Positions 4,961-38,601 of a stretch of 63,638 nt of DNA are shown one piece after another (position 1 is the first letter of the stretch; each line of letters begins with the position of its first letter). The stretch is from Promethearchaeota archaeon (GTDB lineage Archaea > Asgardarchaeota > Lokiarchaeia > Sigyniarchaeales > SOKP01). The notes below the pieces were generated by a model. The model was given only the letters and a program-made list of their open reading frames with translations. It ran no database searches and was not told where the DNA came from. The position numbers were made by a program, and so were the translations under genes. The stretch spans positions 1-63,638 of the forward strand of contig JABXKD010000010.1 in assembly GCA_013375475.1 (NCBI GenBank), written 5' to 3'.

Positions 4961-4980
4961 TTCAAATATATATATTAAGC

Positions 4981-14776: not shown

Positions 14777-14867
14777 TCTATTTTATTTAAAAAATCTATA
14801 ACATTCTAAATATATAAAATTGAGTATTATGGCTAAAATTAAAAAAAAACGTAAATAAATAAATGAT

Positions 14868-16406: not shown

Positions 16407-16504
16407 GATTGATAACTTTCTTCAACTTTTTATTTTAAGTGATAAGTTAAAGATGGGATCATAAAATAAAAAATATTATTAAACACTTTAATGAAAAAAT
16501 AGCC

Positions 16505-17182
16505 CTATTTAACTCTTTTAAACCCACATCTTTGACAGACTAGTCCAACTTCATGAGTATAAACTTCTTTTAGTGGACCATTACAGTTTGGACATTTAAC
16601 ATCAAATGTTGGAAACCACTGTCCCTTGATGTTAGGCATTTGCTTTAAAGTATTAACAAATTGCAAGCTTTCTAAATCCTTTTCGTTGATTTGTAACATC
16701 TGCTGTTCTTCGGCGATAGATTTTCCTTTTGGTGCTAAAACCATTAAAAAGTTCATTTTTTTTGGATCATTTAGCAGTGACAATGTTCGTAATATGGCTT
16801 CCTCTTTATATTGCTCAAATAGTTTAGCTAGTTCTGGAGGAGCTAATGCTACTAATATTGCTTGAGAATTTTTAATTTCTTTTTTAACCTTCTGAATGAG
16901 AAATTGGAAAATTCTTCCGTCACGGTCCATAGCCCATATAAAATTCCATGGTATTATGTCATAATCCTCCTTATCAGGACCAACTATTCTTTTAATGGAT
17001 TCAACCCATGAATAATGTTTGAACTTATATAAATTGGAAAGTAAATCATCAAAGAATCCCAGTTCAATTACGGGAAATGATTTAATAATATTTTTCAGTG
17101 ATAACAATTTAACTTCGGTTAAAATTTGGGAGTTAAGATTTTCCCACGGTGTATAAGTGAAAACTGAAAAGAAATTGCTCAT
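16505..17182 (-). CDS. Hypothetical protein with C-terminal Zn ribbon
   Basis: 225 aa; CPNC...CQRCG at the C-terminus. Confidence 0.75.
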   Translation of the reverse strand: MSNFFSVFTYTPWENLNSQILTEVKLLSLKNIIKSFPVIELGFFDDLLSNLYKFKHYSWVESIKRIVGPDKEDYDIIPWNFIWAMDRDGRIFQFLIQKVKKEIKNSQAILVALAPPELAKLFEQYKEEAILRTLSLLNDPKKMNFLMVLAPKGKSIAEEQQMLQINEKDLESLQFVNTLKQMPNIKGQWFPTFDVKCPNCNGPLKEVYTHEVGLVCQRCGFKRVK

Positions 17183-17313
17183 AGTCTTTTAAATCTAATA
17201 TAAAGTATCCTTTTAATTTTTCTATTTAAGATAAAATAATGGTTTAAATTATAAAAATAAGATTTAAGAAATATTGTGTTATACTTTTATTAAATAGTAA
17301 ACGAGATTATTAA

Positions 17314-18465
17314 ATGAATGGAATATGGGACATAAAAGCTGATGCAATAAAGAAAGGAGACAAACTTAGGGATGTTTCACATCTTTTGGATAAAACTCTA
17401 AAAGACGAAAAGGGTTATACTCATTACATCTTTAATAAAGCTAATTTTCATAATCCTTGGTACGATATACCAGAAAACGATTTCGAATTGTTTGAAAACT
17501 TTATTGAAGGAGGATCTAGAGCGTATCCTTCCGATGGTAGTATACCTTGTGATATAGTGGCGCGTGAAGCAAGAAAAGTTCTCAAGAAAATCGAACTGTG
17601 TTCCCAAGATCCTAATCACCATTATTGTGAAGATGCTCGTGAAGTATTAAAAAATGGGAAATTTTCATTAGTTAGAGGCACATTAAAACTCTATTTAGGA
17701 AAATATACAACCCGGGATTGGAGAAGGAAAAGATTTACAGACGATATCGATTTTTGGATGTTTCAAACTAACTTATTGGACTCTTCTTTGAAGGAGTGTA
17801 GTTTTGTAAAAGATAAAGAAACAGGAGAATGGGAAAAAACTGTAGAATGGAATAAATTTGAAACTAAAGAAAATAGACGCGAAACTCTTTTTGCTGCAAA
17901 TAACCTTAATCAGTTACTCGATTTTGGTGCTGGAAGCTATCTCACTGGTTCAAGTCTAAAAGAAATTTTTGATAAAAAAATTAAAAGAGGTCACGATGTA
18001 GATTTAAGCGATATAATTAATGTAGCAATGGTGAACAATGGTGTTGATGGTATACACAAGGATGAGTGGTTAGACGCATGGAACTCTTTTGAACAGGCGG
18101 CTAATACACGAAGCACTAGCACTACATCTAATTTAATAAGTATTTGCCGTTATTCTTTTGCTATTGCAGACCATCTTGAAAAAGTCGGCGAAGCTATTAG
18201 AAAGTATAAAGATCAAATTTTTGACAAATCTAAATACCCAGAAGAGAAAATAAAATCACTCTGTAGTGTCTCTACTCATTGGCAAAAATTTTATGATGCT
18301 AATGGAGCAGATGAAACTAGAAAGGTTATTCATGGTTTTTACGATGAACAAGCAGAAGAAAAACCATTGCATGCACAAAATCTAAAAACATTTGCACAAA
18401 ATATACTAAAATTACTTAATTCCAAATACGATTATCTTAAGGTTACATTCGAAATTGAGCTTTAA
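17314..18465 (+). CDS. Hypothetical protein, possible AbiEii/DUF2204-like nucleotidyltransferase
   Basis: 'LVRGTLKLYL...RFTDDIDF' and 'KKIKRGHDVDLSDI' resemble the G-x(n)-R-x-T-x-D-I-D and K...D..D motifs. Confidence 0.5.
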   Translation: MNGIWDIKADAIKKGDKLRDVSHLLDKTLKDEKGYTHYIFNKANFHNPWYDIPENDFELFENFIEGGSRAYPSDGSIPCDIVAREARKVLKKIELCSQDPNHHYCEDAREVLKNGKFSLVRGTLKLYLGKYTTRDWRRKRFTDDIDFWMFQTNLLDSSLKECSFVKDKETGEWEKTVEWNKFETKENRRETLFAANNLNQLLDFGAGSYLTGSSLKEIFDKKIKRGHDVDLSDIINVAMVNNGVDGIHKDEWLDAWNSFEQAANTRSTSTTSNLISICRYSFAIADHLEKVGEAIRKYKDQIFDKSKYPEEKIKSLCSVSTHWQKFYDANGADETRKVIHGFYDEQAEEKPLHAQNLKTFAQNILKLLNSKYDYLKVTFEIEL

Positions 18466-24620: not shown

Positions 24621-25877
24621 ATGGTTGAAGCACAAGAAGATTTTATTCAGGAAAGAGAAACAAAAATAATTAAAGGAAATGTGGCTGCAGCTTACGCTGC
24701 GAAATCTGCAAGAGTCCAAGTAATAAGCGCATATCCTATTACTCCTCAAACTACTGTAGTAGAAAAATTATCAGAGTTTGCAGATAATGGTGAGATGCCA
24801 GGAACTCAATATATTAAAGTAGAATCCGAACATTCGGTTATGGCTTCAATAATAGGCGCAAGCACTGCAGGGACTCGCACCTTCACTGCTACTTCGGGAC
24901 AAGGATTATTTTACATGTATGAGATGGTTCATTGGGCAGCAGGTGCGCGATTGCCAATAGTAACTACCATTGCTTCGAGAGGTCCTGCTCCTCCATGGAA
25001 CATTTGGGCAGACTTTACTGATATAATAAGTTGTAGAGATACTGGTTGGATGATTTCATTTGCTTCAAGTCATCAAGAGATCTATGACGATATATTAATG
25101 TCATATAAAATTTGTGAAGATCACGATATTTTATTGCCTAAATTCGTTGCTTATGGCGGATTTACTCTTTCTCATACATCAAAACCTGTAACCATCGAGG
25201 AACAAGACGAAGTTGATGATTTTTTACCGCCACTTCCAGATGAAAAAGGATGGCCTCATATTTTTCTCGATCCTGAAAGACCAATGATGCACGGGAATTT
25301 AATTATGCCATCAGGTTTTTATTACGAATTTAGGTTAAGAATTCATTATACTCATATTATTGCAAAGCAAAAAATCAAGGATGTTGCAGCAGAATTTGAG
25401 AAAAAATTTGGTAGATCATATGGAAATGGATTAATCGAAGAATATAAAATGAAAGATGCGGAAGTTGCTATAATTAATTATGGTGAACTCGCTATGCAGA
25501 TGGAAGACGCGGTTGATGATCTTAGAAATGAAGGATATAAGGTGGGATGTGTTAAATTAAGATATTTACGACCATTTCCTGTAGAAGACATCATACAAAT
25601 TGCTAATAAAGTTAAGGTTCTTGGTGTAGCTGACAGAGCTACTGCGTTTGGATCACCAACTGGAGGGCCTGTAAGTAGTGAAGTGCTGGCAGCTCTATAT
25701 GGTTCGGGAGTAACCACAAAAATTTTACCAATCGTAATGGGTTTAGGTGGTAGAGAAGTAGGATTAGAACAACAGAAGAATCAATTAAAAATATTGAATA
25801 AATTAAATGAAACTGGAGAACTCCCAAAAGATATGATTGAAGGGACTCTCTGGGATGGACTATTGGAGGTTGATTAA
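24621..25877 (+). CDS. porA: Pyruvate/2-oxoacid:ferredoxin oxidoreductase alpha subunit
   Basis: AYPITPQT, ESEHS, TATSGQG, RPFP, GLGGR; ATG 24621 follows the delta-subunit stop. Confidence 0.96.
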   Translation: MVEAQEDFIQERETKIIKGNVAAAYAAKSARVQVISAYPITPQTTVVEKLSEFADNGEMPGTQYIKVESEHSVMASIIGASTAGTRTFTATSGQGLFYMYEMVHWAAGARLPIVTTIASRGPAPPWNIWADFTDIISCRDTGWMISFASSHQEIYDDILMSYKICEDHDILLPKFVAYGGFTLSHTSKPVTIEEQDEVDDFLPPLPDEKGWPHIFLDPERPMMHGNLIMPSGFYYEFRLRIHYTHIIAKQKIKDVAAEFEKKFGRSYGNGLIEEYKMKDAEVAIINYGELAMQMEDAVDDLRNEGYKVGCVKLRYLRPFPVEDIIQIANKVKVLGVADRATAFGSPTGGPVSSEVLAALYGSGVTTKILPIVMGLGGREVGLEQQKNQLKILNKLNETGELPKDMIEGTLWDGLLEVD

Positions 25878-25879
25878 AC

Positions 25880-26818
25880 ATGGTATCTATTAAAGAAGCA
25901 TTAGAAATAGGACAGGAAGAATTTTTTTTAGCTGGAAATTCTACATGTGCTGGATGTGGTCTTGAAATCGCTTTAAGGTGGGCTATGAAAGCACTTGGAC
26001 CTAATACTTCGTTAGTTACACCTGCAAGTTGTTTAAATGTTGTTGTAGGATTATGGCCAAAGACAGCACCAAACTTTCCATTCATGAATATGGCGTTTGC
26101 CGCTGCTGCCGCTGCTGCTACAGGTATCTCAGCAGCCTTTAAAGTAAAAGCTCATAGATTTCCGGGCAAGGTTTGGGAAAAAATGACAACATTAGTTTTT
26201 GCTGGTGATGGGGGAACTACAGATATTGGAATTCAAGGTTTAAGTGGTGCTGCTGAAAGGAACTCTAATATCATATATTGTTGTTACGATAATGAAGCAT
26301 ATATGAACACTGGAATTCAACGATCCTCTAGTACTCCACATGGGGCAATTACAACAACTACCACATTAGGAAAAGAACGATACAAAAAAAATCTACCGAG
26401 AATAATGGCAGCACACGAAATCCCTTATGTTGCTACTTGTTCAGCAAGTGAACCTCTCGATATCTACGAGAAATTTAAAAAAGCAAAAACAATTGATGGC
26501 TGCAAATATATCCACATTTTAGCTTCCTGTCCTCCTGGATGGGGTATTGCATCTGAAGATTCTGTCGAAATCCCTAGATTAGCAGTTAAAACAGGTTCAT
26601 GGATATTATATGAAATCGAAAATGGCGTTTTAACTTTATCAAAAAAGAGTAAATCATTATTAGATCCTACAAAAAGAGCTCCACTAATTGATTACTTATC
26701 TAGACAGAAACGATTTTCAAAGTTATCAGAAAAAGAATTAATTGAACTTCAAGAGAGACTCGATCTTCAATGGTCTAAAATCGCTGATGAAATATCCTGC
26801 CAAGAAAATCATCAGTGA
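25880..26818 (+). CDS. porB: Pyruvate/2-oxoacid:ferredoxin oxidoreductase beta subunit
   Basis: CAGCG, GDGGTTDIG...DNEAYMNTGIQRS TPP-binding motif, CPPGW. Confidence 0.96.
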   Translation: MVSIKEALEIGQEEFFLAGNSTCAGCGLEIALRWAMKALGPNTSLVTPASCLNVVVGLWPKTAPNFPFMNMAFAAAAAAATGISAAFKVKAHRFPGKVWEKMTTLVFAGDGGTTDIGIQGLSGAAERNSNIIYCCYDNEAYMNTGIQRSSSTPHGAITTTTTLGKERYKKNLPRIMAAHEIPYVATCSASEPLDIYEKFKKAKTIDGCKYIHILASCPPGWGIASEDSVEIPRLAVKTGSWILYEIENGVLTLSKKSKSLLDPTKRAPLIDYLSRQKRFSKLSEKELIELQERLDLQWSKIADEISCQENHQ

Positions 26819-26863
26819 AGCCTTTTTTATTACGAAATTAACTTATAATCCAGAGGAATCCAG

Positions 26864-26953
26864 ATGGGTTTTTTAATAAGACTTAAAGGAAAAGAAATTC
26901 AAGATTTAGAATTTTTTCTCGAAATTGCAGTGGAGAATATTATTGAATTTTGA
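26864..26953 (+). pseudogene. sua5: Stranded 5' fragment (29 codons) of a sua5/tsaC gene
   Basis: MGFLIRLKGKEIQDLEFFLEIAVENIIEF* aligns without gaps to residues 1-28 of the Sua5 at 37917 (MGLLLKIAGKKLEDIDVFLEKTVEIINN), 12/28 identical; GAGG SD upstream; directly follows porB. Confidence 0.8.
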
Positions 26954-26969
26954 GGTTTATTTTTGGGGT

Positions 26970-26985
26970 TCATACTTTCGTATAA
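26970..26985 (+). repeat. Left terminal direct repeat TCATACTTTCGTATAA
   Basis: 15/16 identical to 37823-37838. Confidence 0.7.
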
Positions 26986-27009
26986 TATATCAAGATACAT
27001 AGCGGGAAG

Positions 27010-27046
27010 ATTTCGTGGCACATTATTAGGGGTATCGTGGCACGAT
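27010..27046. promoter_or_regulatory. Two TCGTGGCAC motifs, including the palindrome ATCGTG-G-CACGAT; candidate operator
   Basis: ATTTCGTGGCAC at 27010-27021 recurs at 29607-29618; palindrome at 27034-27046. Confidence 0.5.
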
Positions 27047-27181
27047 TGGGAAAAAGCGTGATACGAAACGATTAAATTTTTTTTAATTTTTCGGAATTGT
27101 GCGATTTAAATTCCGATTTTTTTTGAAATAATAATTAACTTTCTATAAGAAAGAGTGAGGAAATAAATAAAAATAATTATT

Positions 27182-29239
27182 TTAAAAAACCTTTTTTTTC
27201 CACTTTGAGTTGAGAACCAAGACAACTGAAACCAAGGAAATTATGCTAATAATTAAAATTATATTATATCCGGAAATTGCTTCTTCAGGTGGAGCAGGTA
27301 TATATTGCCTATATTCATTTTTGATATCATCATAAACCATTTCTCCAGTTTCAAGGTTGATGTTATGAAATGCAACGAAGAAATTGTAGCTAATTACAGC
27401 TCCAGCCGAAATTGAGGCTTCCTCTACAGTAAAGTCAATGTAACCTCTAATTGGACTAATTGAACTTAATCTATAAAGTGGAATTATTTGGTTTGCATCA
27501 GTAGAGCCGTCTAAATATCCAACAGTAACTGCATCTCCAGTTGAATCATCGTATATTGTATAAAAAGGTTTGCTCGCTGAAGCGGCATAATCGTTCCAAC
27601 CAGTCGTGCCCTTAAATGGGACTTCGCCCTGGCCATAAATGAACAATCGATCATTTCTTATTGAATCAGGAAAAAAACCAGCTCCTAGTAATCCTCTGAA
27701 ACTATTTAGGACATTTATTCCATCGTGAATGTGTGAAGGTATCTCATCAATAATAATTTGATTGTTGTCAATGTTCTTAATGTCGGTATGAATCAAAAAG
27801 TAGGATTCATAGCCAGGAGGCAAAACAATTGATGTGTTCCACTGAACTTGATTGCTTGCTGTTTCTCTTAATGTAGAGATACGATAGGAACTCGCAGTAC
27901 CATAGTCTAGGTCGGTCGAGATACTGATATCATATGCATCGTAGCTTTCTGTTCTATCTTGACCGCCACTACTCGCAAAGAAATCACCTTCATCATCTAG
28001 ATCTGGTTCTAATGTAATGGGGGTATCGAATAGATATTGATTAATGGTAGTTACTCGAGAAAAAAGTGCACCTGTAGGAGATTCTAAAATTGAGCTATTC
28101 ATGGAGATCATTATTTCATTATTTGAAAGGACTAAATTATCTGAAAAAATTGGTTTGAAATCAATATCGTCTTCAAAATAATAAGGTATGTCACCGATTC
28201 CATCAAGATTATTATCTACACCTTCGTAATCGTACCAATAATTACCTGTGATTGAATTATTCCAATCATTATTTCCATTGGATAGATGGGCGTTTATCTC
28301 ATTGTTTAAGAAGTAATTTCTATACATTAAATTATTTTGAGTTGCAGCAAATGATGGAGAAAAAATTCCATATTCGTTATCATATAGCTTATTCCCGGTG
28401 AAGTTATTATTATTAGCATTACTTTCTAAGTAGATACCATTTCCACATCTCTCAATAACATTATTAATAATATTATGACCTCTATAAAGACCTGAACTTG
28501 AATTATAAGTTGTAAATATTTGAATTCCATCTTCAGAATTACTAATATAATTATTTGAACAGGTAAGATTAGAAACATAACCTGCCAAATCAATTCCTTC
28601 TCTAGTATTATTTACGATCAAGTTATTTGTAATTATGCTATTTACTATATGTTGGTCACAGTGAATACCACCCCAAATACAATTTTTTATTATATTATTT
28701 GCAACTTTGGAGTTATCACCTGAAAAATAAATACCAACATAACTTTTAAAAATTCTATTTTCTGATATTAAGCAGTTTTCCAACCAAAGAGTATTAATTC
28801 CTACCCATTCGTTATTATACGAAGTATTGTTCGTTATGATTCCATTCTTTATATTAGTTAGTTTAAACGCACCATCTGGACCCCATACCCCTGCAGAATT
28901 ATACACTGTACAGTTTCGGACTATAAAATATTTGGAGCTATCGATAATTTTGATACCATAATCTCCATCTAAGGCATCAATTCTAACATTTTCTATTACA
29001 TAAGGATCCATTTCTGTTCCTGAGCCTGTACACCAATCATAATTAGACTCGTGATATGCCCAATTCCTCGAGCCATCATTATCATCTATAAATATTGGAC
29101 TTCCTGTGAGATCCCAAAAGTCATTACTTTTAAGACCTTCCTCTTCAGAATTAATTTGCACCTTAAATAATGACGAATTAATTGATATCGTGAAAATAAA
29201 AATCATTAGGAGAGATATTAAAGTTTTCTCATATTTCAT
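27182..29239 (-). CDS. Cell-surface NosD/right-handed beta-helix protein with Loki-CTERM-type anchor
   Basis: Signal peptide; GSGTEMDPYVIEN; N-rich beta-helix repeats; GNYWYDYEGVDNNLDGIGDIPY; C-terminal ISGYN + TM helix + KKK. Confidence 0.88.
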   Translation of the reverse strand: MKYEKTLISLLMIFIFTISINSSLFKVQINSEEEGLKSNDFWDLTGSPIFIDDNDGSRNWAYHESNYDWCTGSGTEMDPYVIENVRIDALDGDYGIKIIDSSKYFIVRNCTVYNSAGVWGPDGAFKLTNIKNGIITNNTSYNNEWVGINTLWLENCLISENRIFKSYVGIYFSGDNSKVANNIIKNCIWGGIHCDQHIVNSIITNNLIVNNTREGIDLAGYVSNLTCSNNYISNSEDGIQIFTTYNSSSGLYRGHNIINNVIERCGNGIYLESNANNNNFTGNKLYDNEYGIFSPSFAATQNNLMYRNYFLNNEINAHLSNGNNDWNNSITGNYWYDYEGVDNNLDGIGDIPYYFEDDIDFKPIFSDNLVLSNNEIMISMNSSILESPTGALFSRVTTINQYLFDTPITLEPDLDDEGDFFASSGGQDRTESYDAYDISISTDLDYGTASSYRISTLRETASNQVQWNTSIVLPPGYESYFLIHTDIKNIDNNQIIIDEIPSHIHDGINVLNSFRGLLGAGFFPDSIRNDRLFIYGQGEVPFKGTTGWNDYAASASKPFYTIYDDSTGDAVTVGYLDGSTDANQIIPLYRLSSISPIRGYIDFTVEEASISAGAVISYNFFVAFHNINLETGEMVYDDIKNEYRQYIPAPPEEAISGYNIILIISIISLVSVVLVLNSKWKKKVF

Positions 29240-29605
29240 AGGATCACTTTTTTTCTAAACTAATTGGATTAAAGAGCTATTATTTACTACTAATAAAGAT
29301 CTACTTTTAAATCTTATTGCTTTTACTTTCTTAATCTATTAATTGTTCAGCAAATAAATGTTGGTTTAGAAACTAATACTCATTAAAATCGAGAGAAGAT
29401 GCTACTAGTCACTTTTGAAGCGATCAGAGTTAGGCTATATAAGAATTGGTATTATTAGGAGAAATACATGAGAAATAACGAGAAGCCCTGTTGTATAGAA
29501 TAAGGGTTGGGATTCACAAACACACGACGAATTTAATTACTGGTTAATACTGAAATAGTTTGCGGGCTAATATTGCTATAAGGTATTAAATAATACTACA
29601 AGAAG

Positions 29606-29624
29606 AATTTCGTGGCACGGAATT
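29606..29624. promoter_or_regulatory. Near-perfect palindrome AATTTCGTG-G-CACGGAATT upstream of the RHH gene
   Basis: Same core as the 27010/27034 motifs; ~70 bp before the RHH start. Confidence 0.5.
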
Positions 29625-29695
29625 AAGGTTGGGCATTAAATAGTTGCGTTTAAATAGGTATTTATGGGTAATCGATGGTATGTTAGGAGTGGGCT

Positions 29696-30013
29696 GTGGG
29701 GAGACGGAAGAAATTTGGGGAGGAATCGGGGTTCGTAAACGTTCGGGTGCCGAAAAGTAAGGTTTCGGAGTACCGCGACGCAATTAAGAAGTTAGTTGAC
29801 GAAAAATTTACCCGCGACACAGATAAATTACGCGAAAAAGAGGGGGATAAGGGGAATCTGGGAAAAGAGAGGGTTGTATTTCGCGATTTTCGGGAGTTCG
29901 GGAAAAAAGTAGAAGATAAGGGCGATAATAACACAGACGACGAGGACGATTTCATTGCAGAGATATTTAAAGAAGTAGATAAACACGTGAAGGGCAGAAA
30001 GGACAACGAATAA
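29696..30013 (+). CDS. CopG/ribbon-helix-helix-like DNA-binding protein with acidic tail
   Basis: MGRRKKFGEESGFVNVRVPKSKVSEYRDAIKKLV (beta strand then helix); GTG start with an AGGAG SD. Confidence 0.7.
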   Translation: MGRRKKFGEESGFVNVRVPKSKVSEYRDAIKKLVDEKFTRDTDKLREKEGDKGNLGKERVVFRDFREFGKKVEDKGDNNTDDEDDFIAEIFKEVDKHVKGRKDNE

Positions 30014-30059
30014 TCAGCGCATTTCATGATTTAGGGTTTGGTTTTCATTTTACCGTTAA

Positions 30060-30785
30060 ATGTCAACATTTTTATTTAAGCGAATTTTCTTAGTTCGTAA
30101 AAAAATAAAAGATGTGGCAAAAATGCCTAATTATTGTCGTAATTGTGGCGTCCAACTTAAGAAAAAGAAAGGAAATTGCTCCCATTGTGGAACGCCGTTC
30201 GTTCAAGATCGAAAATTACAAATTCCAAAAAGATATCAACTATCAGAATATTTTTACAAAAAAAGATTTGGTGAACTTCCAGCTAGGGAAAAAGTGTCTA
30301 TAAGAGCATTAAGTAAAAATGAAGATCCATGTTTTCACCTTTTTGAAGCTATGGATTTAATGGATGAAGCCTCAGATTTCCTAATGGATGCCAGAGATCT
30401 CCTAGAAAAAAAGGTTGTATACCTATGGAGAAAAGAAATTGACTTAAAATACGGACTAAACAGCGATAAATTACCTAATTATTGTTCTAATTGTGGATAT
30501 AAAATTACAAACGATTTGATATCGTGTCCTAAATGTGAAGAAGTGTTGGTTTACGAAAAGCTTGAGTACGAAAAAGCAATTGGATACATTCAAAAAGCGA
30601 TTGATATAGATCCTACTAATGGAGACATAAAACTCATTTTAGAATGTGCTCAAAGAGTACTAGAAGAGCAAAATGATCCGAAGAACGCTCGAGATCATTT
30701 AAATATGACTTATAAGCCTTACCGTTCCTTGCTAAATCGTTACATCTCAAGATATGAAGAAATTCGAGCTTATCTTGGAATATAA
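30060..30785 (+). CDS. Double zinc-ribbon protein with TPR-like C-terminus (start may be ATG 30123)
   Basis: PNYCRNCG..CSHCG and PNYCSNCG..CPKC; YEKAIGYIQKAIDIDP TPR-like helix. Confidence 0.75.
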   Translation: MSTFLFKRIFLVRKKIKDVAKMPNYCRNCGVQLKKKKGNCSHCGTPFVQDRKLQIPKRYQLSEYFYKKRFGELPAREKVSIRALSKNEDPCFHLFEAMDLMDEASDFLMDARDLLEKKVVYLWRKEIDLKYGLNSDKLPNYCSNCGYKITNDLISCPKCEEVLVYEKLEYEKAIGYIQKAIDIDPTNGDIKLILECAQRVLEEQNDPKNARDHLNMTYKPYRSLLNRYISRYEEIRAYLGI

Positions 30786-30805
30786 ACCTCAATAAATATG
30801 GTATT

Positions 30806-30833
30806 GCAAGGAAACCCCTTCGGTTTCCTTCGC
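30806..30833. terminator. GC-rich hairpin between convergent genes
   Basis: AAGGAAACC-CCTTC-GGTTTCCTT, 9-bp perfect stem. Confidence 0.55.
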
Positions 30834-30992
30834 GAACCATCCCGCTCATTTTCAAAGGGTGCTCGGTTGTATCGCTCCTAAAGCTCGCTTCACAACTGTC
30901 GCTCCTTTTAAAATTCGGCAAACAATCTAATAATTGCACGGTAGGCGTCCAGTACTCGTTTTTTAGTATTCCGAACCAATTTTTTTTGGTCG

Positions 30993-31526
30993 TCATCCAT
31001 ATGTTTTCGAATAAGATTCTATCAAAATTTCTGTAAGGACTGTGAAAGTCTTCTCTACATTTTGCCCAGTTTTAGACGACAGTTCGGTATATGCAGAGAG
31101 ATTATACTTTTTCGCTATTGCAATTCCTTCTTCTTTTGAAACCTCTCGAGATTTTTCTAAATCTAGTTTATTGCCTATTAAAATAATGGGAATTTCTCCT
31201 GACTGTTCTCGAATAATTTGAGTCCAATCTGGCAAATGGTCTAACGATTGACGATTAGTTATATCGTACATAATAATAGCTCCATTTTTCCCTTTACAAT
31301 ATTGATGTAAGAGGAATCTGAATCGTTCTTCCCCTCCAAAGACCCAAAATTGCAATTTAACCTTCTTTCCTATACATTCTTGAGTTTTGGTATAAAAATC
31401 CACCCCAATTGTCAATTTAGATTCGTCTAGAAAGAACGGAGAGATATAGCGATGGACAAATTCCTCTTTTCCACTCGATGGGTCCCCTAACAATAGAACT
31501 GTAAAAGTAAAATCATAACTCGCCAT
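30993..31526 (-). CDS. Rab-like small GTPase with degenerate G1/G3 motifs
   Basis: TIGVDF, KLQFW, ERFR, YDITN, GNKLDL, SSKTGQNV; G1 reads GDPSSGKE, G3 reads WVFGG. Confidence 0.92.
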   Translation of the reverse strand: MASYDFTFTVLLLGDPSSGKEEFVHRYISPFFLDESKLTIGVDFYTKTQECIGKKVKLQFWVFGGEERFRFLLHQYCKGKNGAIIMYDITNRQSLDHLPDWTQIIREQSGEIPIILIGNKLDLEKSREVSKEEGIAIAKKYNLSAYTELSSKTGQNVEKTFTVLTEILIESYSKTYG

Positions 31527-31776
31527 TTTTTTAGGTAAAAAAATCTAATTAGTATTAACAAAAAAGTCTAAGTATAAAAATATGATAGTGTTCCAAATAA
31601 TCTATCTATTCCTATTCGTACTTTTTAATCGTTCGCATTCCCCGCTTACGTCTTAGTAGACAATATATCATTACGATATGAAAATGTTATCGGAGTGGAG
31701 AGGACTGGAATTTCTGCTTAAAAGGGTTATACTTAAGAAGAATATGGGCTTAGGTAGAAAAACAGTAATCGGTATT

Positions 31777-31846
31777 GACGCTTCGCTTAGAGCGTGGCTT
31801 GGCGTCCTACTGCCCCTTCGGAGCGGACGCACCCGAGTCGCCACGG
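31777..31846. other. GC-rich nested stem-loop (candidate single-strand origin or structured RNA)
   Basis: CGTGGC(31793)/GCCACG(31840) and GCGTCC/GGACGC stems enclosing CTTCGG; contains GCTTCGCTTA. Confidence 0.5.
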
Positions 31847-31903
31847 TGGGAGTGCATTTTTCCGAGAGTACATCTACGGATAATTGAATTATAATTTTAA
31901 ATA

Positions 31904-33127
31904 TTAAAATGTAAGAATTCCTATTTGATTTTCAATGATATAAGTTACTTGCTCCTTTGTCAATTCTCCATTCCATATCTTTAAAAGAGCATTATACAAT
32001 TCCAGAGTTGATAATAAGCCCCACTCTTGAGATTCGGATTTCTTTATGACTGTTTTATCAAAAAAACTCCCTCTCTCTTCTGGTTTTTTGTTTCTATATG
32101 CATTACAAATGAAGATTTGCTTAATCCTTTTCATACTTTCTTCTTCTTTTTCTTTTTCTAACTCCTCAGCATGCCATTTATACATTTGGCTTATGTTTTT
32201 TTCATGAGCAATCTTCTCTAACCCTTTGATTTCTGCTAGTATTTTAGTATTTTCTGTTTCGCAGAATAAATCTGTACGATCTACTGTTCGCCTTATGTTT
32301 TGGAAGCCTAAAAAAGAGAAAATTTTAGAAATAGTTTTTTCCAATGGTTTATCGTATCCATATAACAAGATTTCATACGATTCTATTCTTTTTATCTTCT
32401 CATTAATTTCTAGGGATTCCTCAACCAAACTTTTTTTATCAAAACGATCATAATCCTTTAACCACTTAGGTTTTTTAATTGCTAAATCAAAACCTCGTTT
32501 GTACAACTCGAGCTCAAATTTATCAATATTTGCTAAGCATGTTTCTATAAAATCTCGTTTTAAAGTAGGTTGCGGTAAGAAAATTAAAAAATTCTTTTCT
32601 AATCTAACAATTAATGATATTATATTTCCTTTTTTGTTTTTAGCTAATACATAGGAATCGCTTGGTAAATCCTTTGGTTGAATAGCCCACTTCCAATGAT
32701 ACGGTTGATTTTTTTCGTTAAAAAGTAACTTAGAGAGGTTATATTTGGGATTAGTCATAACAATTTTATTTCCTTTTGTAATTATTGAAGGAGGTATACC
32801 GCTCCATAAACTAGATATTATATCAGAAGTCTCTTCTTTTCTTTGATGTGCTTGTGTTATCACAGAATCAATTTTTGAAGCAAAAATGAATTTTATTTGC
32901 GCTAATTCTCCAGAAATCAATTTTCGTAAAGCATTTGTCTGATCGTAATCAAATCTATGGTAGTCCTCGAAATCAATAAAGAATACATCGTAATCTTCAA
33001 AGTTATAAGTTTGAAATCTATTCCAATTTGTTATATCAATTCTAGTTTCCTTAGGAGTTTTTATTGGATTTTCTTTTTTTTTATCATTTATATTGTCATC
33101 TATAATTAAACAATTTGTCTTATTCAT
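31904..33127 (-). CDS. Hypothetical protein with C-terminal PD-(D/E)xK restriction-endonuclease-like domain
   Basis: LEKTISKIFSFLGF...TDLF...LAEIKG...ISQ pattern typical of Mrr/REase folds. Confidence 0.65.
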   Translation of the reverse strand: MNKTNCLIIDDNINDKKKENPIKTPKETRIDITNWNRFQTYNFEDYDVFFIDFEDYHRFDYDQTNALRKLISGELAQIKFIFASKIDSVITQAHQRKEETSDIISSLWSGIPPSIITKGNKIVMTNPKYNLSKLLFNEKNQPYHWKWAIQPKDLPSDSYVLAKNKKGNIISLIVRLEKNFLIFLPQPTLKRDFIETCLANIDKFELELYKRGFDLAIKKPKWLKDYDRFDKKSLVEESLEINEKIKRIESYEILLYGYDKPLEKTISKIFSFLGFQNIRRTVDRTDLFCETENTKILAEIKGLEKIAHEKNISQMYKWHAEELEKEKEEESMKRIKQIFICNAYRNKKPEERGSFFDKTVIKKSESQEWGLLSTLELYNALLKIWNGELTKEQVTYIIENQIGILTF

Positions 33128-33239
33128 GTTTATCTTAATCCTGAATGGTTAATTTCCATAATAATAATTTTTCTTTCTTTCAATTTTATCATTGACTTAT
33201 AATAATTGCGATTTTCCTTTTATAGACTTTGGAATGTTT

Positions 33240-34073
33240 TTAAGGGTATATTAATTTAAATTTTTTTGTTAGATTATCATTTTCCATAAATGGTATTAGC
33301 TTAAAAATATTATAAACAAAATTCTTTATCACAGAATTATCATCAGTATCTTTTATAACATCAAAATTATTTAAAAGAGTCTTAATTTCCAGTAAATTTT
33401 TTTCGTTCAGATAATCAATCAGCCCAAGATTTTTATTATTATTACTTTTTCTAAGAATTACATTTTCTAAATTAGTTAATGCCTCCTCAATATTAATTTG
33501 TAATTGTCCTTTTTCTTCGTTTTTCAAAATATAACGACAACTAATATAGAATTTTAAAAATCCTCCGAGAAGTTCATAAAATTCATGATTTGTATCTATA
33601 CCTTTCATTCCGTTCATAATTTCTTTTATGTAATCAACATATGATACATAAATCTCTGTAAAATTTGAAAGGTTATAGTCAACAAAACAATCTATTAAGT
33701 GATTTGAATAATAGAACACTTTTTCTATTTGGTCACTAATAGAAGCTTCAGGTTGTTGTGCAAAATGAATATAATCTGTTTTTTTATAGATAAAAATGTG
33801 CCCTAATTCGTGAATTAATTCATAAATAGGGTGATAATGATTATACTCAATTTTCCAATGATTATTTTCCTTTAAAGTTGCACTTGAATTATTGTGAATC
33901 ACTTCTAATCTTATATCTTTATCAGATAGTAATAAAAGCCTCTGAAATGAATCCATTTTGCGTTCCAGATTTGAAATGCAATTATTACATATTTCTCCGT
34001 GATTAAAATATTGATCAATTGAAAGTTGATTATTGCAATAATTACACCTATAAATTCTTCCAAAAATCGGCAT
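33240..34073 (-). CDS. Zn-finger plus HExxH zincin metallopeptidase-like protein (ImmA/IrrE-like)
   Basis: CNYC..CNNC N-terminus; LIHELGHI; downstream N.LIDCFVD. Confidence 0.6.
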   Translation of the reverse strand: MPIFGRIYRCNYCNNQLSIDQYFNHGEICNNCISNLERKMDSFQRLLLLSDKDIRLEVIHNNSSATLKENNHWKIEYNHYHPIYELIHELGHIFIYKKTDYIHFAQQPEASISDQIEKVFYYSNHLIDCFVDYNLSNFTEIYVSYVDYIKEIMNGMKGIDTNHEFYELLGGFLKFYISCRYILKNEEKGQLQINIEEALTNLENVILRKSNNNKNLGLIDYLNEKNLLEIKTLLNNFDVIKDTDDNSVIKNFVYNIFKLIPFMENDNLTKKFKLIYP

Positions 34074-34328
34074 TTTTCCAGTTTTTAACTAATAATATTT
34101 TTGCCTTTATCTATAATAAATGCAATTTATATATATCTTTTTCCTCTATTCATTACAATAATCATTATCTCCCTCACCCGTGGTACCCTCTTCTAAAAAA
34201 GTAAGTTAGAATAAATCCTTCCCTTGCTTACGGCACTACTCGATTTTGTGATTTTCATCACAGTCAATATTGTTTCCGTGAGGATTTGTCTTTTCAATTC
34301 ATCCATTACATCTAGAAAAATTAGTATT

Positions 34329-34400
34329 TAGCTTCGCTTACGCTTCGCTATCGCGACCTTGCTCCGCTTCGCTTCGCAACCATCAAGGGCTAACGGGTCG
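34329..34400. repeat. GCTTC(GC) tandem-repeat/hairpin cluster upstream of rep; candidate origin
   Basis: GCTTCGCTTACGCTTCGCTA...GCTCCGCTTCGCTTCGCAA; CGACC/GGTCG stem. Confidence 0.55.
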
Positions 34401-34747
34401 TTCCAAGTCTGTTGATCTTTTTTTGAGAGCATTAAATCATCTTACCATTATTTTATTCCTGAGTTAAAGAAAAAATTTGAATTTCGTAGTCTTTTTTGGG
34501 ATCGATTTTTTTGGAGCGAATGAACTCGATTGGGATACTAAAGTAGTATTGGTCTCCTTTCTTGGTTGGGCGCTTAATGATGGTCGTTATTTTTTTGTTC
34601 TCCATGATAGTAATAGAAACAATTATAGTATATATATCTTTTTCTGTTATACGAAAAATTATAGGTCTCTTAGGATATATAACTAGGATTATCTGTTATA
34701 TTAACTATAATACTTTTAATAACAGATATCGAGATGATGAAAAAAAA

Positions 34748-35914
34748 ATGTCAATTAAGTTTGGAAGAGCGCACGGGAACGGGTATCACGACAGCGTGGT
34801 GCGGAAGATAACCGTGAAACTCCCTAAAGCGTCTTACGATCGCATAGAGTACGAAATAAGTCAGATAGAGCAAAACGGGGATGTAATTCACGAACGAGAG
34901 TATCACCAATCGTTCATTAAAAGAATCTGCATTAGGTGTCCAATTAGTTATAAGGACGGAAAGCGGGAATACATGGAGAAGCGGGGAGATTTGTTCGTGT
35001 GTTCTCATTGCGGACTAATTAAAGTACCCAAGGGTATAGAATACGATGCTAACGAAGATACTTGTTTTATTCAGGGTTCTTCGACTCGAGCGAGAGATTT
35101 AAACGATCGATTGAATAAATTCAAAGAAAAAGCGCTGAAAGAAGGCGTCAAAGTAGGTAAAATTAAGCACATCGCTTTTAGTCCAACTAAAGCTCTAATA
35201 GAAGAAATTTTAACCAACTACAATTCTTATCTCAAGTTTAGAAAGGAAATCGTGATTAGCACTATTTTAGAAGAATCTGGGTTGTTTGCAGGAGTTTTAA
35301 TTTTCGATTTATGGTCAAAACAATGTAAAATTTGCGGGAAAAAAGAACACGAATGTTCGTGCAATGAAAAGGATTTAGAACGGGTGATCAGTCCTCACTT
35401 TCATTACATTGGATACGGCTACATTCTCCACACCAACGACTTTCGCGAAAAGTTTAAAGATTGGGTATACGTGAATTTCGGTAGCAGAGACGACGCGTAC
35501 CACACGATTTTCTACGCTCTAACGCACTGCGCGATGTGGAGAAAAGAAAACGGAAAGCTAAAACCCGCCTACGAGTTCGCGGGATTCTTACGACCTAAGC
35601 ACTTAGAACCGATACACGCGGTAACGAAATATATCCCGCACACCTGTAAAGTTTGTAAACAACCGACCAGAAGAATTATGAGCGGGCTCACAAGAGTAGG
35701 GAAATTTCCTCATGCGATTCAAGTTCACATTTCAGAGGGCGAATTAAAGCTCGGGAGCGAGATACGATATAAAGCGCTCGTTAGAAGTTATCGAATTTGT
35801 CATATTGAACTATTAAGGGATGTTGTTGAGATTAATAAGATTCGCTACGAAAAATACAAGCGAAAAAGGAAGAAAAATGAAGTAATCGAAAAAAAGGGAA
35901 GCGGATATGGTTAA
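34748..35914 (+). CDS. Rolling-circle replication initiator, HUH endonuclease (archaeal SNJ1-RepA-like/IS91-related type) with Zn-binding motifs
   Basis: Motif I HIAFSP, motif II SPHFHYIG, motif III YALTH; CxxC pairs; ATG 34748 preferred over TTG 34562 (upstream is AT-rich and noncoding-like). Confidence 0.82.
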   Translation: MSIKFGRAHGNGYHDSVVRKITVKLPKASYDRIEYEISQIEQNGDVIHEREYHQSFIKRICIRCPISYKDGKREYMEKRGDLFVCSHCGLIKVPKGIEYDANEDTCFIQGSSTRARDLNDRLNKFKEKALKEGVKVGKIKHIAFSPTKALIEEILTNYNSYLKFRKEIVISTILEESGLFAGVLIFDLWSKQCKICGKKEHECSCNEKDLERVISPHFHYIGYGYILHTNDFREKFKDWVYVNFGSRDDAYHTIFYALTHCAMWRKENGKLKPAYEFAGFLRPKHLEPIHAVTKYIPHTCKVCKQPTRRIMSGLTRVGKFPHAIQVHISEGELKLGSEIRYKALVRSYRICHIELLRDVVEINKIRYEKYKRKRKKNEVIEKKGSGYG

Positions 35915-36119
35915 AATGAATATTTATATATTATTTCTAATAAAAAAGTAAACTTTCACTTTAAGCAAGATAAATCGGTGAACTGCAATTTTAGAGAAAA
36001 TCCTTTCTCTCTCATCGGTTAAAATAAATTAATGATTTGATAATTAAATTAATTAATCTTAATTTTGAGTAATCTAGTTAATAAGAATTTTATAATGTGA
36101 AGATTAAATTTTACTAATT

Positions 36120-36944
36120 ATGGATACTGCTAACATTCGTTCTTACAATACGACTCTAAAGAAAATGATTAGTTTAGCCAAAAACCTTGCGAAAAACGAA
36201 ATTCCTATAATTTACGAGTTAGGTCACTACCTTGCTGATAATGTAATATCTAAAGTATGTATGGTTGTGCTTGCACGAAACAATCGACCTGATTTAATAT
36301 TTGAAAATGAAAAAGATGGTCGAACTTATGACTTTCCAATATTGTATAAAAATATGCGACGAGAATTCTTTCCGAATTTAGAAAAGTATGAGAAGATCGT
36401 TAAGGATTTTCATATTGAAAGGGGTATTTACCAACATAGATTTGAATCGTTAAAACAAACCTTCAGGCAATCAGAAGCAGAAAAATATGTTGATTTCGTA
36501 ATAAATACTATGAGAAAGACTGGAATTTTAGGTACAAAAGAACTAATACCATATGTAAGTTTATTGAGTGAACCTACAACCGTTAAGAATTATGAAATCA
36601 GAATCAAACAAGATGCATATCAAGAATTATATAATTTATTGATTGATCCTGAAAAAAAGAATATAATAATTGCCTTAAAGAACAAATTAGATTTCAGGTT
36701 AAAGCGTTATTTAAAAGAAGATCTAATAATGGAAGAACATAGTTCCTATGGTTATACGACTATCCATAACTCTGAATGGTCGATAGATGGATTTTCTCAA
36801 AGATTTTCAATTGTAGATAAAACAAATAATGAAACTTTTTCTTACAATCAACCGACTACAAATAAACATGTCTTAGAAGAATTTCTAAAATATTTCAAAG
36901 GTTGTTTGAAAGAGCAAGGAATAAACATAAAAGATTTTAACTAA
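36120..36944 (+). CDS. Hypothetical protein with N-terminal HEPN-like domain
   Basis: Helical domain with an Rx4H motif (FHIE-RGIYQH). Confidence 0.5.
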   Translation: MDTANIRSYNTTLKKMISLAKNLAKNEIPIIYELGHYLADNVISKVCMVVLARNNRPDLIFENEKDGRTYDFPILYKNMRREFFPNLEKYEKIVKDFHIERGIYQHRFESLKQTFRQSEAEKYVDFVINTMRKTGILGTKELIPYVSLLSEPTTVKNYEIRIKQDAYQELYNLLIDPEKKNIIIALKNKLDFRLKRYLKEDLIMEEHSSYGYTTIHNSEWSIDGFSQRFSIVDKTNNETFSYNQPTTNKHVLEEFLKYFKGCLKEQGINIKDFN

Positions 36945-37603
36945 ATATCTACATCATTAAGAAGATCCGAATTTACATCATCAAAATACCCGTTTTCAGC
37001 AATAATTTTTACTGTGGATTCAATATCAATAAATTTATAATACTCTGCAATTTTTTTGAAAGTAAAAACAATATATTTTCCAACAGTGTCGTTTGATTTC
37101 TTTATGTACTCTAGGTTATGGTCAATATCTATCCCGATCACCTTATCTATTAAAGCCATATCGGGATGTTTATTACATTCTATATAAGCTTCATCTATTT
37201 TACCCATATTATGAGCGATAACATTCCTTCTACAAATACATTCTCTTAATTCTTCCCATATTTTAAATTCGTTCTCAAAATTGATTTGAAAATTAGCATC
37301 GAAGAATTTCAATATTTTTAAAGGGGTTGTCTTAAAATTTTTCCTTATTAAGTTCTTTTCCTCATTTAATTCATTAAAAAATTCTCGATTGAAAGTTTCA
37401 AATATAGTTATACTATAAATGTGAACTATTTTCAAAAAGAGAGAGTTTTGACCTGGAATAAAAGAATTCATGACCTCTTTCCAGACTCCTTCTACGCTCT
37501 GATCTTCAATTAGACTTATCATTTGATCAATAAAAAATTCTAAATCTATTGTTTGCTTAATAAATTCTAAAAAGATTACAGAAAGCTTTTCTTCAAATTC
37601 CAT
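36941..37603 (-). CDS. HEPN-domain putative RNase
   Basis: ICRRNVIAHNMGKID: canonical RNx3H HEPN motif; upstream SITIFE helix. Confidence 0.75.
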   Translation of the reverse strand: MEFEEKLSVIFLEFIKQTIDLEFFIDQMISLIEDQSVEGVWKEVMNSFIPGQNSLFLKIVHIYSITIFETFNREFFNELNEEKNLIRKNFKTTPLKILKFFDANFQINFENEFKIWEELRECICRRNVIAHNMGKIDEAYIECNKHPDMALIDKVIGIDIDHNLEYIKKSNDTVGKYIVFTFKKIAEYYKFIDIESTVKIIAENGYFDDVNSDLLNDVDI

Positions 37604-37822
37604 AAAGAAACAATTATAAATTAAGTCTATTTAGAGGAAAATAGGAAACAAAGATATAAAAATAAAACACATGAATATTTATATTTAATAATTTATATTT
37701 AAAGAAAAAATGATCTAAAACGATTTATTACTGTATCTAAACTCACTATAAAAAAAAATATAGTGTTTAAATTATCTGTTCTTTATTGATAGATAAAACA
37801 GCAAAAGGAAAAAGAGTAAGTC

Positions 37823-37838
37823 TCACACTTTCGTATAA
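37823..37838 (+). repeat. Right terminal direct repeat TCACACTTTCGTATAA
   Basis: 15/16 identical to 26970-26985. Confidence 0.7.
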
Positions 37839-37916
37839 AACCACACAGATTTTTCCAACGAATAGAAAAAAAATTTAGAGGAATTTTTTTATCTTAATCA
37901 GTATTTTCTAGATTAT

Positions 37917-38585
37917 ATGGGATTACTACTGAAAATTGCGGGCAAGAAATTGGAAGACATCGATGTGTTTCTCGAAAAAACGGTCGAAATTATAAACAAC
38001 GGAGGTCTGATAGCTTTTCCGACTAATTCAGTTTACGGTCTAGGAGGAAATCCACTCAATCTTGAAGTAGTAAATAGAATTTACGATATCAAGTATCGAG
38101 ATCGATCAAAAGGACTATTGCTATTAGTCGCCGATACTGAAGAAGCAGAAAAGATTGCGGAATTTAACAAAATAAGTTATAAGCTAGCTGAACGCTTCTG
38201 GCCAGGTCAATTGACTTTAATATTAGCAAGAAAAGAACCCAACATAATTCCTCCGGAAGTTACGGCTTTTAAAAATACGATTGGTATCCGCGTACCGGAA
38301 AACGAGATCATCCTAACGATTTTAAAAAAATTAAAAGCAAAAGGATATTTTGGTGGAATTATTGGAACATCAGCTAACTATTCTGGGGAACCTCCATCGA
38401 TAAGTGGGGACGAAGTAGCGAAAAAATTTTTAACGCCGATCGATTTAATACTTGATGGGGGAAAAACTAAAACAAAAGTTCCCACAACAATCCTTGATTG
38501 TACCTCAAAAGAATTAAGGTTTTTGCGGATTGGGATCGTAAAAGAAGAGGATATCGAAAATTTAATTGAATCAATTAAAGAATAA
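37917..38585 (+). CDS. sua5: Threonylcarbamoyl-AMP synthase Sua5/TsaC (YrdC domain only)
   Basis: AFPTNSVYGLG, KYR...K, FWPGQLT, GIRVP, TSANYSG. Confidence 0.96.
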   Translation: MGLLLKIAGKKLEDIDVFLEKTVEIINNGGLIAFPTNSVYGLGGNPLNLEVVNRIYDIKYRDRSKGLLLLVADTEEAEKIAEFNKISYKLAERFWPGQLTLILARKEPNIIPPEVTAFKNTIGIRVPENEIILTILKKLKAKGYFGGIIGTSANYSGEPPSISGDEVAKKFLTPIDLILDGGKTKTKVPTTILDCTSKELRFLRIGIVKEEDIENLIESIKE

Positions 38586-38601
38586 ACATTTGGAGTAAAT
38601 T

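Follow-up and report, generated by a model that had tools for sequence, protein, structure and literature searches.

An island in a Lokiarchaeial sua5/tsaC gene strands the native gene start and supplies a replacement 5′ end

Among the mobile elements described in bacteria, some streptococcal integrative and conjugative elements (ICEs) enter the conserved 5′ ends of essential genes and leave the reading frame restored. This was reported for seven of 73 elements with a tyrosine integrase, the targets being ftsK, rbgA and ebfC, and the N-terminus of the target protein is reported to remain unmodified (PMC4701971). Tn5253 inserts in rbgA as well (PMC8571831). A different behavior is described for rolling-circle transposons, which pick up flanking host DNA when they miss their terminator (PMC5714925). 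For Asgard archaea, aloposons, HeimV1 (PMC8813620), the elements of Atabeyarchaeia (PMC11529989) and the Fylgjavirus provirus of Ca. L. ossiferum B36 (bioRxiv 10.64898/2026.02.13.705702) are reported to use tyrosine recombinases, and their sites are tRNA genes, short motifs or intergenic regions. Here, an island of 11,067 nucleotides (nt) is described that interrupts sua5 (tsaC), the gene for threonylcarbamoyl-AMP synthase, in a Lokiarchaeial genome, leaving the native gene start behind and fusing the remaining gene to a start of its own. The window, i.e., the whole stretch of DNA that was analysed, comprises the 63,638 nt of contig JABXKD010000010.1 from the Promethearchaeota archaeon assembly GCA_013375475.1 (genome G000).

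An earlier note, made from the letters of this DNA alone, had pointed to a 29-codon open reading frame (ORF) behind porB as a stranded piece of sua5, homologous to the N-terminus of an intact Sua5 further downstream. This observation is confirmed. porB (25880–26818, forward strand) encodes the beta subunit of a 2-oxoacid:ferredoxin oxidoreductase and is the host gene preceding sua5 in relatives. The ORF at 26864–26953, of which the ATG lies 45 nt past the porB stop at 26818, encodes MGFLIRLKGKEIQDLEFFLEIAVENIIEF and then stops. Without gaps, its product aligns with residues 1–29 of the intact Sua5 (starting at 37917) at 12/29 identities; the BLOSUM62 score, 61, is reached by none of 20,000 shuffled controls (maximum 38, z 6.0). 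A tblastn search of the 3.9-Mb genome with the first 35 residues of Sua5 placed the fragment ahead of every other non-self match (E 0.001) among the 12 lines listed, all on contig C11. sua5 itself has one match in the genome, i.e., it is a single-copy gene.

That the fragment is the native gene start follows from comparison with relatives. Of 15 genomes of the same genus in which sua5 was matched, 14 have porB as its immediate upstream neighbor, at a distance of 44–70 nt (158 nt in G003), and PorB is 77–98% identical at the amino acid level across these genomes. The exception is G008, which has a gap of 8.4 kb, its own stranded fragment and a sua5 start of the type found in the window's intact gene, hereafter R-type. 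Among the 14 genomes with the native arrangement, 13 have an N-terminus that is 53.6–100% identical to the fragment, with 42.9% for G007. The match is complete (28/28 residues) for G014, a near-identical relative without the island of which PorB is 98% identical, and amounts to 53.6–89% for 12 further native N-termini. A match of 28/28 residues is also found in the metagenome protein P0003, which has a start of the fragment type (L-type) and is 100% identical to the window Sua5 over the remaining protein. At the DNA level, the window and G014 are equal from porB to ATG+83, and the downstream gene is equal from ATG+98 on, barring a few single differences. The 29-codon ORF is the native 5′ end of sua5/tsaC; its host DNA extends over 26864–26946 (forward strand) and holds codons 1–27 plus 2 nt of codon 28. 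In annotation it should be labelled as a gene remnant. The ancestral order was porB and then, within about 45 nt, a single-copy sua5/tsaC that is presumably essential. The claim that an element has split this single-copy gene of t6A synthesis is likewise upheld by the synteny, by the identity to G014 and by empty-site contigs from the same samples, to which we now turn.

The inserted DNA comprises 26947–38013 and stands in place of 14 nt of the empty allele (ATG+84 to +97). Because these 14 nt, GGGTAAATTAATTT, occur in neither junction, the empty allele is not a simple deletion of the occupied one. The region is contained in four marine-sediment runs (X1–X4) from two studies, and in all four of them contigs join 26946 to 38014 via GGGTAAATTAATTT, which is the empty allele of the G014 type. 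In X1 this allele has a depth of 33.4 and the island a depth of 17.3, uniform over 27368–37641; together they add up to the depth of the flanks (49–51). The X1 contigs cover 26970–29650 and 31215–38043 at that same even island depth. The depths of the empty allele and the island are 15.6 and about 5–6 in X2, 13.5 and about 1–7 in X3, and 7.9 and about 0 in X4. Empty-allele contigs of X3 (26230–26946 and 38014–38552) have 0 differences to the window flanks, and the one of X4 (38014–38895) has 0 differences to the window. Occupied and empty alleles coexist in sediment populations, as a presence/absence polymorphism.

These data also bear on the idea that no mobile element is involved, the arrangement having come about through chimeric assembly or because the sua5 start was locally duplicated or rearranged. 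The genome is indeed a 288-contig metagenome assembly, and none of the listed contigs of the four runs bridges 26946/26947. The latter absence is not counted as evidence here; the contig pieces of X1–X4 are a part only, and contigs break at branch points. The idea is very improbable, as the identical architecture is present in the independent genome G008 and in seven metagenome contigs, both junctions stand on a single 3.3-kb contig (L066), and in X1 the island depth is uniform with the allele depths summing to that of the flank. Moreover, the two 5′ ends are identical at 55 of 97 positions, which does not fit a recent duplication.

The right end of the island brings a new start for the interrupted gene. 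A replacement promoter and leader (37839–37916, forward strand) arrived with the island and is missing from the empty allele. It is followed by replacement codons 1–32, the R-type N-terminus MGLLLKIAGKKLEDIDVFLEKTVEIINNGGLI (37917–38013, forward strand), which are fused in frame to the host-derived sua5/tsaC body from codon 33 to the stop (38014–38585, forward strand), near-identical to G014 from ATG+98. R-type sequence runs to 38013, and host DNA begins at 38014. The intact gene (37917–38585) encodes a protein of 222 amino acids (aa) of the short single-domain, TsaC-like form, matching PF01300 (E 3.8e-51, residues 24–206) and the equivalog TIGR00057 (166.1 bits, cut-off 123.2). The note had treated 37917–39138 as one gene, which has to be corrected, as sua5 ends at 38585 and 38602–39138 is a separate ORF with a THUMP domain. 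From the new promoter, a full-length enzyme with a divergent N-terminus would be made.

The note had left two options, a replacement 5′ end or a whole replacement allele. The first one stands, with a promoter added to it, and the second one falls on G014, P0003 and the empty-allele contigs. Under the second option the intact sua5 would be wholly foreign and carried by the element, with the 29-codon stub as all that is left of the host gene. The high CpG content of sua5 for this window (32 CpG in 669 nt, observed/expected ratio 1.50, a count reached by 2.9% of 669-nt windows) would suit such an origin, as would the islands in ykgJ-like genes discussed below, which do carry a complete second copy of the gene they split. 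Its probability is nevertheless negligible, given that the gene is near-identical to that of the empty-site G014 from ATG+98, that the empty-allele contigs of X3 (38014–38552) and X4 (38014–38895) do not differ from it, that P0003 combines an L-type start with a 100% identical rest, and that the host-derived body is CpG-rich too. With a ratio of 1.46 for this body, the observation that the intact copy is richer in CpG holds numerically, and CpG richness as a foreign mark of sua5 is rejected. In CpG, it is the two 5′ ends alone that can be distinguished, with a ratio of 1.79 for the 97 replacement nt and 1.04 for the stranded fragment (6 and 1 CpG, respectively). The GC content of the island is unremarkable (0.24–0.38 in 1-kb windows).

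As to the source of the replacement piece, the 97 nt of R-type agree at 69 positions with the native start in the sister-genus genome G082, and 37874–38001 is 77% identical to native sequence of this genome that covers the sua5 start and the region before it. Neither a stranded fragment nor the 12-bp repeat of the island ends was found in G082. Of the 117 homologues that could be classified, 19 have an R-type N-terminus, and R-like starts are native in the most distant homologues listed, which are ~70% identical over the remaining protein. Judged from these identities, the piece was probably captured from an earlier host of a sister-genus-like lineage. The N-terminal dimorphism of Lokiarchaeial TsaC is not to be taken for ordinary allelic divergence.

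The island is a member of a Lokiarchaeial element family with shared ends, a plasmid-like backbone and variable cargo. At its left end, a spacer of two 13-nt units, TTTTGAGGTTTAT and TTTTGGGGTTCAT (26947–26973, forward strand), is absent from the empty allele and contains the TGA that closes the stranded ORF (26951–26953). At other sua5-type loci, the spacer after the host fragment measures 8, 13 or about 27 nt, and it is present at the ykgJ-type loci too. Next comes the left 12-bp terminal direct repeat ACTTTCGTATAA (26974–26985, forward strand), with which the 25-nt left-end motif ACTTTCGTATAATATATCAAGATAC (26974–26998; bottom strand TCTTGATAT) starts. The adjoining block (26986–27084, forward strand) has two CGTGGCAC near-palindromes, is a putative origin or operator, and is conserved with G008 and with contig C25 of the same genome; the alignment to G008 extends over 25002–27084 (86%), the one to C25 over 26956–27068 (83%). 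At the right end, the same 12-mer returns in direct orientation (37827–37838, forward strand), and conservation with G008 and L066 starts at 37824. Apart from the 12-mer, the two ends differ. The exact 12-mer is present at both ends, in direct orientation, in all five islands of which both ends are available (G000, G008, L066 and two in G147), and the whole 3.9-Mb genome has five occurrences of it.

The G008 island has the same architecture with an insert of 8.4 kb, and its similarity to the window island is confined to a few short patches and the two ends, on the left as far as 27084 and on the right from 37824 on. The combination of porB, stranded fragment and left-end motif is found in G008 and the seven metagenome contigs mentioned above, and the left-end 25-mer occurs exactly in 37 other loci, eight from GTDB genomes and 29 from metagenomes. 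In viral contigs, the 25-mer and an attP-like gapped pattern gave 0 matches, and no episome was found there. The backbone begins with the conserved left end, operator-like repeats and the gene of a small basic putative regulator, in this order, and further includes a putative zinc-finger HUH nuclease and the terminal 12-bp repeats.

The sequence upstream of the left-end motif was read at the 37 loci to class their targets. Eight loci have the sua5 fragment after porB (seven by tblastn, and L063 with just the last ~27 nt), 12 lie in a ykgJ-like CxxCxxCC gene that is cut directly past an Arg-Pro codon pair, seven lie downstream of a CDC48-like gene, four are inside an epimerase-like gene and six are of other kinds. 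In the ykgJ class, the split leaves residues 1–96 of the host gene on one side and ~98 to the end on the other, and a whole diverged copy stands inside the island. At the epimerase-like locus of G147, ~117 codons are gone compared to the intact gene of G000 (C225) and no spare copy is seen; because of this, mending of the target is frequent and not universal. The island at this locus is L094 (G147, contig C65, reverse strand 2384–17861), which measures 15.5 kb and has an intact nuclease gene and both 12-mers; its target is not mended. A second, tiny relative of the island is present in the window's own genome (C25, 1–1600), where a ykgJ-like gene is cut after Arg-Pro; its left-end motif is 83% identical, a remnant of the small-protein gene stops after 10 codons, and a second ykgJ-like copy runs off the contig end. 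A model in which the 12-mer is the attB core was found to be unsupported, as the empty sites of the CDC48-M20 and epimerase-like targets in G000 do not have the 12-mer.

The candidate enzyme of this family is encoded at 34748–35914 (forward strand). We read its product of 388 aa, from motif conservation and a structural model, as a zinc-finger HUH nuclease (Rep-like) of an unannotated family. Thirteen members were found in an index of 5.8 billion proteins, and a profile search yielded 613 cluster representatives at E<=0.001. In a family alignment of 12 sequences, H141, PHFH at 216–219 and Y251/Y256 are invariant, and a superfamily alignment of 62 sequences keeps invariant the two His of the H-u-H motif, one Tyr and several Cys. 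The structure modeled from the latter alignment has a predicted local distance difference test score (pLDDT) of 90.4 and places H197 and H199 on a strand (190–204) and Y236 on a helix (231–239), all three invariant in the 62 sequences. A first model, from the 12 sequences, had a pLDDT of 53, and Foldseek gave generic ferredoxin-like folds only for it. In the VIA-align comparison, HUH nucleases take 15 of the best 50 rows, with no Z reaching 6. First comes SIRV1 ORF119 (Z 5.4, root-mean-square deviation 4.1, 105 aligned residues), which is titled 'hypothetical' in its entry and which we take to be a Rep protein; the second match is pMV158 RepB (Z 4.8), and the HUH rows also include Helitron, parvovirus, CRESS-virus and AAV nucleases and the MobM relaxase. 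Foldseek with the pLDDT-90.4 model gave no match at E<=0.001, with RepB at rank 5 (E 0.09). In language-model features, the product comes closest, among the named clusters of the Atlas, to Rep_1 and Zn_Tnp_IS91 (scores 0.95–0.96).

Profile methods gave negative results for this family. Pfam models matched none of 22 members scanned and PHROG models none of 10, the Rep_1 (PF01446) and Zn_Tnp_IS91 (PF14319) profiles had no match at E<=5 in 12 members or at E<=0.01 in 10 distant relatives, and a profile search of the sequences of solved structures gave 0 matches at E<=1. Rep-Arvir was considered as the nuclease family and rejected, since it is Rep_trans-like (PMC13107129).

The copy in the window is probably defective, to judge from its sequence. 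Its first ~103 residues have been replaced and cannot be aligned with the family, and the conserved N-terminal Zn-finger domain is missing. None of the three sua5-type islands seen keeps an intact Rep gene: it is altered in G000, and what is left is a 119-aa stub in G008 and a C-terminal remnant in L066. Intact copies of 369 aa are present in G147 and G148.

How the island came to its place can be approached from its junctions. By reading, host sequence stops at ATG+83/84 at each of the nine left junctions of the sua5 type. On the right, it takes up again at +98 in G000 and at about +92 in G008 and L066; 14 host nt are lost in G000 and 4 in the G008 type. The two host/insert boundaries at sua5 have no core in common. 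Because 14 host nt are missing and there is no common core, the insertion is not the product of a conservative single crossover. A Campbell-type single crossover through the carried sua5 piece was rejected as well, since the left copy would then include the host nt +84 to +97, which are absent. At the junctions, no duplication of the target was seen and, by reading, no common tetranucleotide was recognised. Pfam found no integrase family in 10 ORFs of the island, and none is among the 25 families listed, out of 58 found, for the 91 ORFs scanned at related loci. The tyrosine-recombinase family PF00589 has one match (contig C55, 13096–13614) in the entire assembly of 3.9 Mb, which is 100% complete. 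This gene is possibly a chromosome resolvase of the XerA type, and it is the sole candidate for a recombinase acting in trans.

With moderate confidence, we favor a history in which a founding insertion of the rolling-circle type was followed by spread of the island allele, largely through homologous recombination, and by decay of the Rep gene. A rolling-circle-type element without an integrase would have made a rare, non-conservative insertion into sua5, driven by its HUH enzyme, and would have brought along the sua5 5′ piece captured from the sister-genus-like host. Rolling-circle machinery would explain the capture of adjacent host DNA, as in IS91-type elements. The occupied allele would then persist as a presence/absence polymorphism and pass between lineages largely via homologous recombination in the flanks, while the Rep gene decays. 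Recombination is suggested by a comparison of G008 and L066, which are identical at 95 of 97 positions in the R-type coding segment, against ~80% upstream and 84% in the gene body. The near-identical host fragments with differing left ends in L066 and L085, the like divergence of R segment and gene body between G000 and G008, and the decayed nuclease gene of the three sua5-type islands also speak for this history.

Several results weigh against this history. The tract that G008 and L066 share is short and confined to a single genome pair, and is weak evidence for spread by recombination. On a quick tree of residues 34–222, R-type sequences are scattered, with 17 changes of which at least 7 are forced, no better than with shuffled labels. 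The loss of linkage within two codons, described below, fits repeated precise integration too. The 12-mers lie 27 nt and 175 nt inside the insert, off the sua5 host/insert boundaries. No circular or excised form was seen among the X1–X4 contigs; as for the specific circle joints (38013 to 26947, or 12-mer to 12-mer), none is among the contigs shown, which is not counted as evidence. On the side of the enzyme, the structural matches to HUH nucleases have low Z values, and HMMER finds no Rep family of Pfam or PHROG in the nuclease or its distant relatives. The bottom strand of the left-end motif, TCTTGATAT, presumably resembles the origin nick sites of pC194 and phiX174. The papers searched did not confirm this likeness; in the one consulted for a CTTGATA nick site, a primer sequence was the only find.

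The same observations can be accommodated if members of the family repeatedly integrate at codons 28–32 of sua5 through a dedicated recombinase, either encoded by the element, supplied in trans or hijacked from the host, and bring a replacement 5′ end each time. R-type N-termini are present in many host lineages beside L-type alleles of which the remaining protein is near-identical, and well-supported branches force at least 7 of the 17 label changes. In a linkage analysis of 91 of the 103 R/L rows, namely those of exactly 222 aa, the association with N-terminal type is 1.0 at residue 30, has dropped to 0.15 by residue 32 and is at background beyond it. The host part ends at ATG+83/84 in nine of nine left junctions, one host-fragment lineage carries differing left ends (L066 and L085 are 96% identical in the host fragment and just 70% in the left end), and there are at least four kinds of target, each with a fixed cut position. 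We hold this explanation to be unlikely, since the lost host nt (14, or 4 in the G008 type) and the absence of a boundary core do not fit a conservative single crossover, and since no integrase was found in the island or, among the 25 families listed out of 58, in the related loci. Moreover, the sole tyrosine recombinase of the genome sits elsewhere, all three islands of the sua5 type have a degraded Rep-like gene and no circular junction is among the contigs. Finally, G000 and G008 are diverged equally in the R segment (87.6%) and in gene body and flanks (86.8%), which fits co-descent better than recent spread. The note's interpretation is supported in its outline. Where it had spoken of an integration strategy that protects an essential target, the mending part stands; a dedicated integrase is not shown, as there is none in the island, 14 nt are missing and the Rep gene is degraded, and homologous exchange of the island allele would account for much of where it is found today.

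A broader proposal is possible but doubtful. The islands could form an integrase-less Lokiarchaeial family resembling IS91 and Helitrons that uses an undescribed zinc-finger HUH enzyme, inserts into protein-coding genes and remains tolerable through the captured pieces of these genes that it carries, which in turn guide or stabilise insertion at the same gene in new hosts, shuttling Ras-family GTPase and defence genes among Asgard lineages. If so, the sua5 piece would consist of a promoter and an in-frame 5′ end, and the ykgJ-like piece would be a whole spare copy.

The remaining island genes and sequences are as follows. The first cargo gene (27182–29239, reverse strand) encodes a NosD/beta-helix surface protein with a C-terminal membrane anchor (PF05048 E 1.6e-21, PF13229 E 5.5e-19); the copy on C25 does not have this gene, its left end being directly next to that of the small protein. 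At its membrane-anchor end, a contig variant in all four runs returns from 27270 to 27171 via 10 other letters, TCCATCTAAT. The small conserved basic protein at 29696–30013 (forward strand; MGRRKKFGEE..VRVPKSKV..) is a putative element regulator, ribbon-helix-helix-like by eye. Its homologues stand ~200 nt past the left-end motif in most related loci, and it has no family in Pfam, PHROG, NCBIfam or PADLOC. The motif TTTCGTGGCAC / ATCGTGGCACGAT occurs at the left end (27010–27050) and again upstream of this gene (29607–29628). TCGTGGCAC has seven occurrences in the genome, three of them at these island sites, and may be an operator. A further cargo gene, for a Ras-family small GTPase (30993–31526, reverse strand; PF00071 E 2.6e-42), has an 81% identical paralogue on contig C244. 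Ras GTPase genes are found in or beside islands at eight loci (the window, L054, L055, L059, L065, L068, L084 and L085), and islands of this kind may move GTPase genes between Lokiarchaeial lineages.

Two neighbors on the reverse strand match no family model. u407 (31904–33127) has a C-terminal half that is PD-(D/E)xK nuclease-like by eye, with a 34% identical relative in the G147 island, and u277 (33240–34073) has a HELGH (HExxH) metalloprotease-like motif by eye. The cargo pair downstream of the nuclease gene (36120–37603) consists of u274 (36120–36944, forward strand) and u220 (36941–37603, reverse strand). u220 has a HEPN-like R-x4-H motif and weak matches to HEPN models (E 5e-4 to 5e-3), the u274 family recurs in four islands (L061, L069, L089 and L092), and the two genes may form a toxin/antitoxin-like or defence pair. 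Overall, the Pfam families in island ORFs are NosD/beta-helix, zinc-ribbon/TPR and Ras GTPase, with none for the other five proteins scanned. Island proteins matched only families of unknown function in PHROGs and gave weak matches only in PADLOC, and those scanned against NCBIfam gave no match.

The stretches common to the window and G008 islands are 29473–29642 (85%), 30804–30917 (93%) and 31782–31861 (96%). The last two are conserved above the flanking core genes (83–86%). None of the three has a tRNA or Rfam match: 20000–45000 contains no tRNA or tmRNA, and 26000–39500 has no Rfam match at E<=1. This rules out an attachment site of the tRNA type, and known RNAs as the nature of the patches shared with G008. 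When the end regions were folded, only weak hairpins formed (z −1.9 to −2.9).

At this locus, resolved to exact coordinates, a mobile island breaks up a gene of translation fidelity that is normally essential and repairs it with foreign sequence. It also defines a family by recognisable ends, a candidate enzyme for replication and insertion, and several target genes, in which no recognisable integrase was found, and it gives a confident structural model to a sizeable, unannotated HUH-like superfamily. If the proposed transfers are true, the islands are a route for GTPase and defence genes between Lokiarchaeial lineages. A literature search of full texts, which did not cover supplements, found no element in sua5/tsaC, no such left-end motif and no such nuclease family.

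Among the systems described above, the streptococcal ICEs resemble the island in outcome. Both enter a conserved and essential single-copy gene at its 5′ end, coding is restored from the element, empty and occupied sites exist, and the promoter is replaced, for the ICEs in some cases. In contrast, the ICEs have tyrosine integrases and direct repeats of 12–84 bp that include the crossover core, whereas in the Asgard host of the sua5 island no integrase and no core were found, 14 nt were lost and the supplied N-terminus is identical at 12 of 29 residues. With the rolling-circle elements of the pC194/pUB110 type (Rep_1), IS91/ISCR and Helitrons (PMC5714925), the island has in common a putative zinc-finger HUH/Tyr nuclease, no integrase found, no inverted terminal repeats, no target-site duplication seen, and host DNA that was picked up, i.e., the sua5 start. 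It differs from them in that Rep_1/IS91 is undetected by HMMER, in having one invariant Tyr and no helicase domain, and in its termini, which are 12-bp direct repeats with no tetranucleotide target recognised. The Asgard elements are likewise integrated, vary by presence and absence in populations and carry defence-like cargo; none of them is reported to split and mend a protein-coding gene. The tycheposons of Prochlorococcus offer a further parallel, with a fixed site that gathers variable cargo, degenerate remnants and partial target copies that mark past events, but they use site-specific tyrosine integrases and tRNA targets, and their partial tRNAs are true att repeats (bioRxiv 10.1101/2020.12.28.424599). 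The strategy is a known one, and what is new here is the undescribed Lokiarchaeial element family that carries it.

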